Notes: a model not told the origin generated them from the sequence alone. A stretch of DNA of 64,000 nucleotides from Eledone cirrhosa (GCA_964016885.1 OZ024766.1:9052001-9116000), one strand, 5' to 3'; positions 33,201 through 42,200 are shown, numbered from the stretch's first letter. Program-made: numbers and translations.

Positions 33201-36200
33201 TATATATACAGACACACACATATATATATACAGACACACACACACATATATATATACAGACACACACACACATATATATATATATATATATATATATATA
33301 CACACACACATATATTTACACACACACACACATATATATATATATATATATATATATGGCAGTGACAAAAACATAAAAAAAAAAAAGATGGCTGAACCTA
33401 ACCTTAGCTTTCTCCCTCAAAGATTTAATTTTGTCCCTGATGGACAACCTACTGAGAGCCAGCTCGTCTCCATCTCTTGCATCTTCCTCCACCACCTCCT
33501 CCTCCTTCTTTTCCTCGCCCTCCTCCTCCTTGTCATCATCATCATCATCGCCGTCGTCATCACCGTCATCACCATCATCGTCAATGTTTCCACCAATCAC
33601 TCTGTGATCGAGATTCTGCTTGTCCTCTTCAGAATCTTAAGTGCAATAGTAACATCATCATCATCATCATCATCAACAGTAATGGCTGCAGATTTAGGCA
33701 CAAATCAACAATTTTCAGGGGAAGGGAAAGTTGATTAAATATATATATATATATACGATATTAAATAAATGGAAAACTATATTTATAAAACCATATTTAT
33801 TTCATTATATATATTTCGGGGATATCATATTAACAATATGCTATGCCTTCATCAGACAAAATACAATATAAACAGTTTTATAGATAAATAGATTCGACAT
33901 ACCGTAATAACACCGACTTCATTTGAAGAGGTTTACGCTGGCAGTGAAAATTTTATACAATTTTGTATAAAAATTGTATAAAATTGTACAAAATTGTATA
34001 AAATTGTACAAAATTGTATAAAATTGTACAAAATTGTATAAAATTGTACAAAATTGTACAAAATTGTATAAAATTGTACAAAATTGTATAAAATTGTACA
34101 AAATTGTACAAAATTGTATAAAATTGTACAAAATTGTACAAAATTGTATAAAATTGTACAAAATTGTACAAAATTGTATAAAATTGTACAAAATTGTATA
34201 AAATTGTACAAAATTGTATAAAATTGTACAAAATTGTACAAAATTGTATAAAATTGTACAAAATTGTACAAAATTGTATAAAATTGTACAAAATTGTATA
34301 AAATTGTACAAAATTGTATAAAATTGTACAAAATTGTATAAAATTTTTCACTGCCAGCGTAAACCTCTTCAAATGAAGTCGGTGTTATTACGGTATGTCG
34401 AATCTATTTATCTATAAAACTGTTTATATTGTATTTTGTCTGATGAAGGCATAGCATATTGTTAATATGATATCCCCGAAATATATATAATGAAATAAAT
34501 ATGGTTTTATAAATATAGTTTTCCATTTATTTAATATTGTAAATATACTCCAAATAATTGTCGAGTGCTTTTATATCAGTTATAAATATTTACTAGTTGT
34601 AACCCAACAATTTTAAATATAACTTTACATGTATATATATATATATAAGTAAGTATACGTTCATACATATATGTATACAGACGTACAGTAGTATATATAT
34701 ATATATATATATAAGTAAGTATACGTACATACATATATGTATACAGACGTACAGTAGTATATATATATATATATATCTAAGTAAGTATACGTACATACAT
34801 ATATGTATACAGACGTACAGTAGTATATATATATATATATATAAGTAAGTATACGTTCATACATATATGTATACAGACGTACAGTAGTAAATATATATAT
34901 ATATATATATATATATATATAAGTAAGTATACGTACATACATATATGTATACAGACGTACAGTAGTATATATATATATATATATATATATATATATATAA
35001 GTAAGTATACGTTCATACATATATGTATACAGACGTACAGTAGTATATATATATATATATATATATATATATAAGTAAGTATACGTTCATACATATATGT
35101 ATACAGACGTACAGTAGTATATATATATATATCTAAGTAAGTATACGTACATACATATATGTATACAGACGTACAGTAGTATATATATATATATATATAT
35201 ATAAGTAAGTATACGTTCATACATATATGTATACAGACGTACAGTAGTATATATATATATATATATATCTAAGTAAGTATACGTACATACATATATGTAT
35301 ACAGACGTACAGTAGTATATATATATATATATATATATATATAAGTAAGTATACGTTCATACATATATGTATACAGACGTACAGTAGTATATATATATGT
35401 ATATAGATATGTACATACATGCACACATATATATATATGTACGTATGGATTCTCCGAACATTTATTATAATGCTCGGTGTGTTTGTAAACAAACATCCCG
35501 AATGGTGAATCCATACATACATATATATATATATGTGTGTGCATGTATGTATATATATATATATATATATATATATACTACTGTACGTCTGTATACATAT
35601 ATGTATGTACGTATACTTACTTATATTTAAGTAACAGCCGTACTAAGAGTGAGAAATGAAATTTTGTTTCATTTTTTCCGTTTATATATATATATATGTA
35701 TATATATTAAAATATAAATATTAATAAAATAGAAGTTCTTTGAAGAAGACTCGATAAGGATTATATATATATATATATATATTAGAATACAAATATTAAT
35801 AAAATAGAAGTTCTTTTGATCAATTACATTTTATTATACATATTTCGGAGATACAACAGTACGTCCTCATCAGACAAAATATAATGATGCATGACATACC
35901 CTGAGATGTTAAATGGTTAAGATTTAATCAAGGTAGTGATTAACCTAAGAGAAAACTCAACATTTATACCTTAATAATGAGAAAATGCGAAAACGTCAGC
36001 TACAGAGATTTTAAAATGTAGGATACTACAAGTTAAGTTTACATTTTCAAATCTCAAAAGCTGACACATTAACCAACGTTTTTCTTACTCACACATTCTC
36101 TATTGAATTTATTATGTTTTCGCATTTTCTCATTATTAGGGTATAAATGTTGAGTTTTGTCTTAGGTTAATCACTACCTTGATTAAATCTTAACCATTTA

Positions 36201-39200: not shown

Positions 39201-42200
39201 ATTTTATCTGATGAAAGCGTACCAAAGTTTTGGTACCCTTGAAATATATATAATAGAATAAATACGGTTTTATAAATATATAATATTAATTCAAAATATT
39301 AATAAATATAGACATTCACGTAATCAAAATATATTTTATTATATATATTTCGGAGGTACTGTGTTGTTTTCTCAGTACGTCCTCATCAGATAAAATATAT
39401 AAATTGATGTATGACATACCTCAACTGCCAAGACTGGAATTGAACCATCAACACAGTTGAGGTATGTCGTACATCAATTTATATATTTTATCTGATGAGG
39501 ACGTACTGAGAAAAACAACACAGTACCTCCGAAATATATATAATAAAATATATTTTGATTACGTGAATGTCTATATTTATTAATATTTTGAATTAATATT
39601 AATAACTCCAGAAAACTTTTCCTGTTGAGTGCTTCTAATCTATTGTAAAGCTATATTCATTGATTAATCAATGAACCATGATTAACTTTTGGTCATATAT
39701 ATATATATAAAGTTACAGTATCGTGAGAGAGGATAGAAAGATGAGGTATAAAGAGAAACGATACAGAGGATTATTTGCCAAAAGTGAGGGCATATGTGCT
39801 CAATGCTTATGTAAACAGGGTTAAATATTAGAGGCGTTAATTATTTAGTGTACAAAGTTAAGCAGAGCAATTATAATCGAAAGAATTGATGAAAGAGAAG
39901 CAAGCCGTTAAAACACATTTATAAAAAGCTCTTACACATGTTTCACCCAAACCGCCTCAGAAGAGCCCCTTTGGGTGAAACATATGTAAGATTTTTTTTA
40001 TAAATGTGTTTTAACGTCTTGCTTCTCTGAAAGAGAACCAAGCCGTTAAAACACATTTATAAAAAGCTCTTACACATGTTTCACCCAAACCGCCTCAGAA
40101 GAGCCCCTTTGGGTGAAACATATGTAAGATTTTTTTTATAAATGTGTTTTAACGTCTTGCTTCTCTGAAAGAGAACCAAGCCGTTAAAACACATTTATAA
40201 AAAGCTCTTACATATGTTTCACCCAAACCGCCTCAGAAGAGCCCCTTTGGGTGAAACATATGTAAGATTTTTTTTATAAATATGTTTTAACGGCGTGCTT
40301 CTCTTTCATCAATTCTTTCGATTATATATACATACATATATATATATATATATATATATATATATATATATATATATATATATATATATATACAGTTGTC
40401 CCCTCGGTATTTGCCAGGTTATGTTCCTAGAGGACCCACAAAGAGTGAAAAACTGCGAATATTGGACGTGGTCCATAAAAATGCCTATAAGCGTCAAAAT
40501 ATAACGTAAAATATAATAAAAAGAGGGAGAGTCTTATGCGAGGGGGCGTCCAATAGGCCTGCTAATATGGTATACCATAATAATTGTTTCTAATTTTGGC
40601 ACAAGGCCAGCAATTACCCCCAGTGTATTACTGGTACTTTATTTTATCGACCCCGTAAGGATGAAAGGCAAAGTTAACCTTGGCGGGATTTGAATTCAGA
40701 CCGTAAAGAGACGTAACTATGCTGAAAAGCATGGCGTCTGACCCTCTACCGATACTGCCAATTCACCGCCATAATAAGAATAAAGGGAGCAATGCGGAAC
40801 TGTATCCTGAATATATCTTTTTATCCTGTTAGTAAAATAAGTTGGATTCCTTTCAATAAATAATGAATGAATCTATAATAAGAATAAAGGGAGAAGTGTG
40901 GGACTGTGTCCATTTTATATTATTTTATCCTGTTAGTAAAATAAGTTGGATTACTTTGAATAAATAATAAATGAATCTATAATATAATATAGGGAGAAGT
41001 GTGGGACTGTGTCCATTTTATATTATTTTATCCTGTCAGTAAAACAAGTTGGATTACTTGGAATAAATAATAAATGAATCTATAATATAATAAAGGGAGA
41101 AGTGTGTGACTGTGTCCGTTTTATATTATTTTATCCTGTTAGTAAAATAAGTTGGATTACTTGGAATAAATAATGAATGAATCTATAATATAATATAGGG
41201 AGAAGTGTGGCACTGTGTCTGTTTTATATTATTTTATCCTGTTAGTAAAATAAGTTGGATTACTTGGAATAAATAATGATTGCTTATTTTAAAATTTACT
41301 TTCTTTTTAATTTTCAAATGTCAATACTTCCAGTTATGATATAACGTACGCTATATCATATTGCTTATATAGACATTCATATATTTACATCGTTATATAA
41401 GGTTTATATTTCTGTCGCTAATTTTCTCCTTTTTCGTTTTCATTATATTTCGCTGTAATACAATTTATATATAATATCGTCTTTCTTTAAATGTATCATG
41501 GATTACTTTACTGATTACATAAGACAGTGTAACACAGTCTCTCTTCAATTTCTGTGTATATTGTCAATTACGATTTTACTTGATGTACCATATCATCATT
41601 TCATTTTACGCCCACTTTTTCCCTGCTTGCAAGGGTGGGACAGGAACTGATTCTGGCTTGATTTCTACAGCTGGATGCCCTTCCTAACACCAACCTCATT
41701 TACAGTGAGTGCTGGGTGCTTTTTTGCCGTGGCACCTCCACGACCACTTTGCAGTGGAATGATAGGGACCCCAGTCCCTATCATCTCATTTCTACAGCTG
41801 AGTAAACTGGAGCAATGTGAAATAAAGTGTCTTGCTCAAGGAAACAACACATCACCCGGTCTGAGAATTGAACTCACAACCTTTCGATTGCAACGCCAAT
41901 GCTCTAACCACTAAGCCATGTGATTACATTCATATTAAAAGATACAATCAAAAATACAGGTTAAAATAACCGCTTAATTTCATGTTGTATTTTAACCTGT
42001 ATTTTTTATTGTATCTTTTAATATGAATATAATCTCTAAATGTGTACTGCCACACTAAATGCTGTAATGAATGTTGACCCACAATATTTGCATATGTATC
42101 TGTATGTCTCTTGGGTGAAAAGGAGGTCATATAAGTGTTCATTCAATAATAAATTGCTCCGAAGAATCCAAACCTCGGTTTGGAGGAAACAGTTGTAAGC

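Follow-up and report, generated by a model that had tools for sequence, protein, structure and literature searches.

An inverted hammerhead cluster in a CC2D2A intron of Eledone cirrhosa and what its insertion junctions suggest about the copying of Penelope-like elements

What has filled one intron of CC2D2A with hammerhead ribozymes, and from which template were they copied? We analysed a window of 64,000 nucleotides from Eledone cirrhosa (GCA_964016885.1 OZ024766.1:9052001-9116000), in which minus-strand CC2D2A exons lie on either side of the cluster (Table 1), confirming its assignment to an intron of this gene in a first-pass annotation that had read it as an array of non-autonomous ribozyme-bearing elements or retrozymes.

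Hammerhead cores in the intron

Between 33760 and 39692, 16 of the 17 CTGATGA sites are intact cores of type I minimal hammerheads: each has stems I and II, GAAA, a stem III of self-complementary sequence and, as cleavage triplet, AUA or AUC. The site at 38362, which had been counted as a 17th core, has no stem I, stable stem II or palindrome, and a site at 42581 was likewise rejected as a hammerhead. With four cores outside the cluster (4678, 5001, 23979 and 24105) the whole window holds 20, close to the earlier figure of about 21. A strict descriptor recovered 13 of the 16 cores, compared with means of 0.003 (dinucleotide) to 0.24 (8-mer) in shuffled sequence (300 shuffles each, maximum 2 matches), dinucleotide shuffling being the control that the annotation had proposed. 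Across 11 families or subfamilies both sides have changed in 13 of 19 pairs of helices I and II, a level reached in 0 of 500 shuffles and far above slid controls; helix III is palindromic in 16/16 cores. The 16 full cores with covariation bear out the initial reading of type I minimal hammerheads of the Penelope-like element (PLE) kind on both strands. Stem I has mismatches in two cores, and the stem II sequences, first described as unrelated, have in common that the C at their fourth position is left unpaired (16/16). The Rfam check that had been proposed gave no hammerhead match: there were 3 matches at gathering score, all tRNA, and 127 to E 10, none to a hammerhead family, the best weak ones being miRNA models on hairpins. 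Judged from sequence, the ribozyme folds are real, and cleavage is only predicted.

An exact pattern matches 14 times in 5.9 kb of the cluster, compared with 0.13 expected from the genome total, a density raised about 110-fold (111-fold), and once in evenly spaced stretches of the same contig totalling 170 kb. Genome-wide, one hammerhead pattern has at least 63,821 matches, whereas 2,000-9,000 hammerheads per genome were counted among metazoan PLEs (PMC4209133); since up to 120,000 are given for the axolotl (10.64898/2026.07.22.740005), the present count is no record. CTGANGA is kept in 364 of 389 arms from the families' copies, with position 7 alone varying, by subfamily, so catalysis is probably under selection.

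The metazoan PLE minimal hammerheads described in PMC4209133 are likewise type I, with a long helix II, a helix III palindromic for dimers and many families per genome; the present ones differ in the greater length of helix I (8-12 pairs, mostly A-U) and in a conserved C mismatch at the fourth position of helix II. The same source attributes dual minimal hammerheads on opposite strands, about 100-700 bp apart, to truncated PLEs (Cervera and de la Pena 2014), and as such pairs were published in 2014 the cluster belongs to a known kind.

Head-to-head insertions and their parent elements

The cores are not independent, being the arms of about nine insertions (Table 1). Of 89 pairs of same-family neighbours, 78 are head-to-head and 7 tandem, four of the latter with 3.4-4 kb between them. 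One long and one short arm make up 65 of 76 classifiable pairs, and 18 of 30 pattern-picked family D copies have an abutting inverted arm. A tail of about 90 nt (85-100 nt, compared with 30-40 reported for PLEs) is present on one arm, and the ends of the hammerhead-bearing terminal repeats (pLTRs) are flanked by (TA)n in the window and elsewhere in the genome; the first-pass annotation had noted neither the head-to-head arrangement nor the tail and the (TA)n target sites. Between the five insertions of 35774-38349 there is nothing but (TA)n runs. We conclude that the cluster probably consists of some nine stacked head-to-head pLTR insertions from PLEs of the Hydra clade between (TA)n runs, that is, retrotransposon debris of a kind already described, for which no new system is required.

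Table 1. Features of the cluster and flanking exons, in window coordinates; arm identity compares the two arms of an insertion.
Feature	Position	Strand	Arm identity	Details
Intact cores		+		34440, 36237, 36884, 37374, 37805, 38226, 38869, 39208, 39492
Intact cores		-		33855, 35873, 36540, 37236, 37689, 39050, 39389
CC2D2A exon downstream of cluster	33400..33636	-		acceptor ~110 nt from first insertion
Family D insertion	33748..34631	.	211/213	inverted arm without tail 33748-33960 (core -33855), then repeat, then direct arm
Family D junction repeat	33963-34345			38 copies of 10-nt unit
Family D direct arm				initiator +1 34350, core +34440, predicted cut after 34489, short end ~34541, tail to 34631
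(TA)n-bounded element without canonical core	35400-35680, within 34632..35680	.		inverted arm reiterated, 11 units of 68 nt
Family A'' insertion (20-nt stem II)	35774..36427	.	210/216	short arm core -35873, tailed arm core +36237; both arms run upstream past initiator
Family B insertion	36460..37022	.	121/126	short arm core -36540; long arm core +36884, incomplete tail
Second family B insertion, opposite polarity	37046..37476	.	154/167	tailed arm core -37236, short arm core +37374
Family A' insertion	37494..37905	.	149/155	tailed arm core -37689 beginning ~3 nt inside initiator; short arm core +37805
Family E insertion	37984..38349	.	111/114	tailed minus arm cut off inside stem II (core lost); short plus arm core +38226, AUC triplet
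Family C insertion	38701..39280	.		tail 38701-38857 on minus; cores -39050, +39208; plus arm from initiator 39127
Family A insertion	39281..39695	.	144/145	short inverted arm core -39389; direct arm from initiator +1 39424
Family A direct arm				core +39492, predicted cut after 39542, short end ~39597, tail to 39695
(TA)n runs between insertions	36428..36459; also 33740, 35683, 35762, 37029, 37478, 37904-37983, 38350, 38524, 38687, 39696	.		
Nearest detected upstream CC2D2A exon	51106..51180	-		56% identity to P0015, E 0.22, colinear with 15 other exons

The arm identities of 92-99% suggest a long history of insertions. Other-family cores occur at 42-161 per Mb beside any insertion, compared with about 6 per Mb, and new insertions likely land in the TA run left by an earlier one; regional tolerance could give the same enrichment. 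The core at +38869 belongs to a second copy of the adjacent family A arm, carried by a 231-nt inverted duplication (38847-39077 and 39181-39411, 227/231 identical). The coreless element at 35400-35680 is tandem in locus L236 and inverted in L023. In four sequencing runs no contig bridged the region, and most pieces were high-copy.

A search of copies elsewhere in the genome for adjacent PLE ORFs, a check proposed at first pass, traced families A, A', B, D and F upstream into RT/GIY-YIG ORFs, which upholds the retroelement origin of the cluster. The family A' stem II recurs downstream of RT/EN ORFs, identically in L120 and near-identically in L102 and L107, and an 85% sibling of family C continues into an endonuclease C-terminus in L182 and L365; no ORF link was found for families A'' and E. 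The intact copy, L181, comprises an inverted pLTR, a pLTR, an open ORF of 739 aa and, 3,952 nt further on, another pLTR, in all 1.16 units, reaching 345 nt upstream of the start site; the family D direct arm of the window is identical to its pLTR at 290 of 292 positions. Among L181, L182 and L113, pLTRs in partial tandem, a 5'-truncated inverted copy and a hammerhead in the pLTR were observed.

The 739-aa ORF contains a YRDD motif, and its protein model (pLDDT 92) finds its best fold match in telomerase TERT (E 1e-9). A C-terminal GIY-YIG endonuclease was recognised by motif and by conservation in 96 homologues (IVY..YVG, E700, flanking C/H); the predicted model has the strand-strand-helix order, and a single-sequence fold of the endonuclease reached pLDDT 30. 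Pfam gave no match on the PLE proteins and a PDB sequence search nothing relevant. The Hydra motifs DKT, the CxCx5C linker, and CxxC and CxH around E and N are present, and CCHH is absent; at the position of the Hydra RWK motif family D has RWR and family A an RWC-type variant (homologues K 51%, R 39%). By DKT, the linker and the C/H motifs, and by comparison with a reference set by eye, we assign the elements to the EN+ PLEs of the Hydra clade. Craig et al. (2021, PMC8557442) describe this clade, which includes the octopus family Hydra-1_Obim, as likewise having a C-terminal GIY-YIG, DKT, the CxCx5C linker, CxxC and CxH with no CCHH, and as having (TA)n targets, a pLTR hammerhead, a 5'-truncated inverted copy and a tail on one end. 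The CX2-5CxxC linker and CCHH endonuclease finger are not found, which rules out the Neptune clade. Penelope families of Adineta vaga (Arkhipova et al. 2013, PMC3846280) also have head-to-head inverted pLTRs with an optional tail, and a pLTR with a TATA box and a TCACT initiator-like motif.

The array of non-autonomous elements or retrozymes first proposed does not fit the prevalence of head-to-head over tandem neighbours, the varying junctions or the families that reach ORFs. Non-LTR retrozymes (PMC7229834; Li et al. bioRxiv 10.64898/2026.07.22.740005) do resemble these copies in their type I hammerhead, short AT-rich repeats and relation to PLEs. They are, however, head-to-tail monomers of 150-450 nt without an ORF, whereas the present copies are inverted, variably truncated ends of ORF-bearing elements; no such monomers were found and five families reach ORFs, so that retrozyme identity is not supported. 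A MITE-like unit moving whole was rejected as well, since junctions differ from copy to copy.

Insertion junctions and the template for copying

Among 96 arms of family A, 29 read through the start site and 67 are truncated. Of the truncated arms 33 end at -2 to +3, 18 exactly at the A of TC-A-CTG, an initiator-like site 30 nt behind the TATA box TATATAAA. Family D, which has no TATA box at -30, gave 27 read-through arms among 53, and 11 of its 26 truncated arms end at +1 to +3 of the same motif. Family A has 120 AT-flanked +1 junctions; by-eye reading of the 100 that were listed found an untemplated G in 29 and a C in 6, the G excess over a background of 5.4% having P 5e-14; at non-+1 positions G is found in 1/17 (Fisher P 0.034). 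In the 96-arm sample a G precedes 7 of 18 +1 junctions, several being readable from the inverted arm. At +1 in other families G was seen in 1 (ambiguous) of 4 for D and 1/1 for B, so the signal is strong in one family only. An extra G is a mark of capped full-length L1 insertions (PMC11702581).

Among the first 100 of 4,293 family D tails, read by eye, 85 keep the whole core and 1-2 stop close to the cut site, a count on which truncation where the ribozyme cuts was rejected. The family C tail in the window ends 3-5 nt past its cut site, not on it. At the other end, 103 family D 3' ends divide into 35 short, 64 long and 4 read-through. Families A, B and D have a hairpin motif in two copies 90-97 nt apart ahead of the ATG, and the short and tailed 3' ends fall just before these two copies.

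The 5'-end pile-up, the untemplated G and the retention of the whole ribozyme together point to likely copying from capped, uncut RNA. The start site and cap are likely, as read from DNA junctions; reverse transcriptase may add an extra C wherever it reaches the 5' end of an RNA, whether or not a cap is present. We favour, with reserve, the reading that the junctions record copying in vivo of a capped, uncut sense RNA on which the two hairpin motifs set the starts and synthesis runs off at the cap. A pLTR promoter would give a capped sense RNA ordered cap, hammerhead, motif 1, motif 2, ATG, ORF, a trailer of 1.3 to 1.5 kb and pLTR. The element protein would cut both strands of a (TA)n target, and each target end would be extended after annealing to a short AU stretch immediately 5' of a hairpin motif, priming at motif 1 giving the short arm and at motif 2 the arm with the 90-nt tail. 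Target-primed reverse transcription in the 5' pLTR would pass the uncut hammerhead and, 170-280 nt on, run off at the cap, which would at times be copied as G, and two cDNAs joined by microhomology would form the hairpin. Longer arms would arise where synthesis was primed within the 3' pLTR of a longer RNA or jumped to it.

The read-through arms (29/96 in A, 27/53 in D) need a second kind of template, which this model assumes, and they fit an RNA circle of a Hydra-clade element, cut by the ribozyme and re-ligated, with long or more-than-unit copies made by passing the start site. Such a template, put forward by Cervera and de la Pena (2014, PMC4209133), would also retain the ribozyme, as ligation restores the junction, and agrees with the 1.16 units and 345 nt of upstream sequence in L181 and with a core conserved outside position 7 under probable selection for catalysis. 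It remains unlikely, since a circle has no initiator end and no cap and leaves the pile-up and the G unexplained. A circle may nevertheless be the source of the read-through class beside the capped-RNA route.

Most copies have no ORF, and the short arms could be SINE-like non-autonomous solo pLTRs, whose transcripts would run into the TA flank and serve the Hydra protein as templates in trans. A solo pLTR that kept its promoter would yield the same capped 5' end, and in a rotifer pLTRs alone can act in trans (PMC3846280). We consider this rather improbable: the copies have no fixed length, shared junction or retrozyme-style tandem monomers; those starting at +1 have lost the TATA box; the family D short arm is 99% identical to the intact element; and the 3' ends match the motifs, the second of which occurs only in ORF-bearing tandem copies. 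As a remnant of the first-pass view, transcripts of solo pLTRs may still be an additional source of short arms.

Head-to-head arms might also form by self-priming of an antisense transcript, as suggested in Arkhipova 2013 (PMC3846280), or by DNA fold-back repair of one cDNA. The junctions are often near-perfect palindromes, and the duplication at 38847-39077 copies flanking DNA, which needs a DNA-templated or read-through step. We give this route little credence, as it is the sense strand, at its own start site, that has the extra G, arms end at two distinct fixed sites in 65 of 76 pairs, and arms can cover different parts of the element. The rotifer report favours antisense-template self-priming and leaves sense possible, whereas the junctions here favour capped sense RNA.

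The two starts and the uncut template agree with in vitro results on the green anole element Poseidon (Frangieh et al. 2024, PMC11167929), where both strands are cut and extended from two internal starts and ribozyme cleavage is unneeded; Poseidon also shares AT-rich targets and two internal starts defining the tail. Its starts lie inside the ORF, whereas ours precede the ATG, within a leader of 330 nt, and each is found just 5' of a hairpin motif that is repeated there, and the portion of that report available to us describes neither a cap-derived G nor start-site run-off, both of which we infer here.

The host gene and the wider insertion set

The 111-fold density, seven cores in host-sense orientation and a first insertion ~110 nt from a splice acceptor might suggest a ribozyme array recruited by the host to cut or regulate CC2D2A pre-mRNA, with palindromic stem III pairing core with core. 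This has next to no likelihood: every sense core comes after its antisense arm and is predicted fully paired, stem I is mismatched in two cores, nothing sets the elements apart from the rest of their families, which number thousands of copies, and PLE minimal hammerheads are described as cleaving poorly in vitro (PMC4209133). An equilibrium folding prediction pairs all 7 host-sense cores with the far arm at probability 0.99-1.0. As the antisense arm is transcribed before each sense ribozyme, the ribozymes would be locked in dsRNA and the cluster is likely to be catalytically silent.

A further, poorly conserved CC2D2A exon may lie between 33400-33636 and 51106-51180. The statement that no RT or GIY-YIG ORF lies nearby holds for PLE ORFs, none being found in the window or 10 kb to either side, but the window has two Pfam RVT_1 fragments (24478-25131 and 31431-32222); these have no match to PLE protein and look like LINE pieces.

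In the sources available to us, the PLE literature leaves open the template polarity, the origin of the tail and inverted pLTR, and the ribozyme role, and one PLE only has been studied as purified protein (PMC11167929). Our literature search, with most subscription journals outside it, found nothing joining Penelope with non-templated or cap G, no PLE mechanism paper since 2023, and octopus PLE hammerheads only in Craig 2021; the junction record itself (start-site pile-up, G, whole ribozyme and two motif-linked starts) was not found in print.

The value of the locus is that it leads to a young and very large population of Hydra-clade insertions with countable ends, whose junctions supply defined positions (a start site, two priming sites and a repeated RNA motif) along with an intact ORF. 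If the capped-RNA reading is true, one rule would cover the tail, the head-to-head pLTRs, the flood of solo hammerheads and the uncut host introns; it would settle the sense-or-antisense template question for the Hydra clade, and a strong-stop-like cDNA would be the commonest product. A-to-G hyper-editing had no clear case among 88 family D arms, and two rows in 100 D tails are suggestive. Tens of thousands of near-perfect intron hairpins of 150-250 bp would be a large putative source of dsRNA for editing.

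Hammerhead folds in the CC2D2A intron

Of the 17 CTGATGA sites in the cluster of stacked hammerhead-bearing insertions (33748–39695), 16 form complete type I minimal hammerheads, each combining 5–12 pairs in stem I, GAAA, a self-complementary stem III of 8 nt, a triplet that is either AUA or AUC, and a stem II whose fourth position is a conserved unpaired C. The site at 38362 does not form the complete fold and was ruled out, so that the dense cluster described in the first-pass annotation stands and its count of 17 intact cores does not. That annotation had proposed comparison with shuffled sequence and with Rfam; a strict descriptor recovered 13 of the 16 cores in the region vs 0.003–0.24 in shuffles, and an Rfam search of the region detected no hammerheads. 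Over 11 families and subfamilies of pLTR (the terminal repeat of Penelope-like elements, PLEs), 13 of 19 stem pairs show two-sided change, a count that kinship of the sequences can inflate, although slid controls nevertheless fall far lower. CTGANGA is kept in 364/389 arms (single pLTR copies) anchored outside the core, with subfamily variation at position 7 only. The type I folds in the cluster are real.

Colinear minus-strand exons through the window place the cluster inside an intron of CC2D2A, as the first reading had held. Seven cores are sense-oriented in the pre-mRNA, and cleavage of that RNA by the predicted ribozymes is unlikely because each is transcribed later than its own antisense arm and is predicted to be fully paired with it. 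The CC2D2A exons for residues 802–896 and a hammerhead at 4678 are present twice, ~8.2 kb apart (window 3120–5250 and a second locus, L070), either a tandem duplication or an assembly artefact.

Paired insertions and their parent elements

The cores are arranged as inverted pairs, with a minus-strand arm left and a plus-strand arm right in each insertion and 3′ ends pointing outward into (TA)n. Of the two arms, one ends in a tail of 85–100 nt and the other stops short. The cluster is made up of about nine insertions (arm identities 92–99%), which belong to six families or subfamilies; five consecutive ones are separated solely by TA runs. Across all loci examined in the genome, which were chosen for presence of an arm and many for presence of a tail, same-family neighbours are head-to-head in 78/89 cases and 65/76 classifiable pairs have one long and one short arm. 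We rejected retrozymes as the identity of the cluster on this orientation and on the lack of retrozyme hallmarks; what survives of the earlier interpretation is PLE-type hammerheads in a CC2D2A intron with no PLE ORF nearby, none being found in the window or within 10 kb beside it.

A single hammerhead pattern gave 63,821 genome matches (reversed control, 0), with 14 in the region vs 0.13 expected and 1 across 170 kb sampled at even intervals along the same contig. Longer copies continue upstream across a 1.3–1.5 kb trailer to an endonuclease and an RT. A complete family D element (locus L181) consists of an inverted pLTR, a pLTR, an open 739-aa ORF and a second pLTR 3,952 nt later; the window's D arm matches it at 290/292 positions, and D copies are mutually 98–100% alike. 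Family F is linked to a full ORF and C through a sibling; no ORF link for A″ or E was found among genome copies. The PLE protein has DKT, YRDD, CxCx5C, CxxC and CxH and lacks CCHH, the set defining the Hydra clade in Craig 2021 (PMC8557442), and by these motifs the cluster's families would belong to that clade. The protein's model (pLDDT 92) has telomerase TERT as closest fold. The element's closest named protein relatives are from Argonauta hians, so an octopod host is likely.

Earlier reports describe opposite-strand minimal hammerheads 100–700 bp apart from truncated PLEs (2014, PMC4209133), head-to-head pLTRs with tails, TATA and TCACT motifs (2013, PMC3846280), and the Hydra clade with its (TA)n targeting and a single octopus family (2021, PMC8557442). 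The cluster represents a new set of families from a clade already known, stacked with unusual density, and the value of the find lies in the junction evidence rather than in the cluster itself. The hot spot is likely self-feeding, because each insertion leaves TA runs at both sides and neighbouring cores are enriched: other-family cores beside an insertion reach 42–161 per Mb, whereas the contig sample gives ~6 per Mb and the stricter pattern, applied to the genome, gives 21 per Mb. The densest 3-kb locus among 148 examined held 5 cores.

Junctions and a copying model

A, B and D copies share two 3′ end positions in TA runs, with junctions varying copy by copy and a few AT bases at each end common to element and target. 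D arm 3′ ends (n = 103) were 35 short, 64 long and 4 reading on. In tandem A, B and D copies, a hairpin motif after the short end recurs after the long end, 90–97 nt apart, and the repeated motif lies ~40 nt before the ATG. Among the first 100 D tails out of 4,293, inspected by eye, the core is complete in 85 and 1–2 end near the ribozyme cut site; the template was therefore uncut or re-ligated.

At the 5′ side, family-A arms were selected with an anchor lying 26 nt into the element, regardless of the sequence upstream (861 matches; 96 distinct arms from most of the 100 listed). Twenty-nine read through. Of the 67 that are truncated, 33 end within −2..+3 and 18 precisely on the A (+1) of TC-A-CTG, a putative start site 30 nt behind TATATAAA. 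Family D shares this motif and not the upstream sequence with A, and 11/26 truncated D arms end at +1..+3; in the window, the plus-strand arms of A and C begin there as well. The base between a run of twelve A/T and +1 was counted by eye in the 100 of 120 matches listed, two rows of which may be duplicates: 29 have G, 6 have C, which is the base of the element itself, and 65 have A or T. G follows such runs in 5.4% of unselected DNA (P 5e-14) and in 1/17 junctions at other positions (Fisher P 0.034). In L1 insertions of full length, an extra G is the signature of the cap (PMC11702581).

Building on the observed structure, ORF linkage and end positions of the insertions, we lean slightly toward a priming and cap model. 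Capped sense RNA would be the template, both strands of the (TA)n target would be cut, and the two ends would prime just 5′ of the two hairpin-motif copies; reverse transcription would pass through the uncut ribozyme and run off at the cap, and microhomology would join the products. Against the cap, G counts in D and B are too small and D has no TATA box at −30. The model fits what an anole PLE does in vitro (PMC11167929) and weighs against self-priming on an antisense template, as proposed in 2013 (PMC3846280). Neither cap-G run-off nor a motif repeated at both start sites was found in the literature searched, with limited subscription coverage. To yield read-through copies and copies of more than one unit, the template would have to be a longer RNA or a circle, or the enzyme would have to jump to the 3′ pLTR. 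The 231-nt inverted duplication needs a DNA-templated or read-through step.

Other elements and junction repeats

Features of the window
Feature	Position	Detail
Inverted duplication	38847–39077 vs 39181–39411	inverted; 227/231 identical; C arm + A arm, includes insertion flank
Family F pair	23890–24300	arms 148/148 identical; linked to full ORF in locus L368
Single A-type arm	4590–4880	
Truncated C pair	58345–58500	
A different, smaller type of hammerhead (5001)	4990–5040	
tRNA-like heads of repeated SINE	1402–1459, 4447–4504, 58028–58085	further copies 58700–59750
Other small hairpin insertions	38546–38686, 28640–28800, 150–230	without full core

Two reiterations lie at insertion junctions (10-nt unit × 38, 33963–34345; 68-nt unit × 11, 34632–35410), with a similar one upstream of a family D arm at locus L166, as if a telomerase-related enzyme had slipped and recopied a short template. 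Another abundant (TA)n-bounded element (35400–35680; loci L236, L023, L061 and L118), in which no canonical hammerhead core was seen, occurs both inverted and in tandem, with a period of 442 nt in L236. A 138-nt hairpin with degenerate hammerhead halves stands in three tandem copies at 39890–40304 and is low copy in DNA sequencing runs. RVT_1 fragments lie at 24478–25131 and 31431–32222, one of them bearing a PHD-like finger, and a weak match to a helicase C-terminus lies at 42865–43224. Family D arms at G000:C1:83202261 and C1:52539072 carry several sense-strand A-to-G changes resembling RNA editing fixed in DNA.
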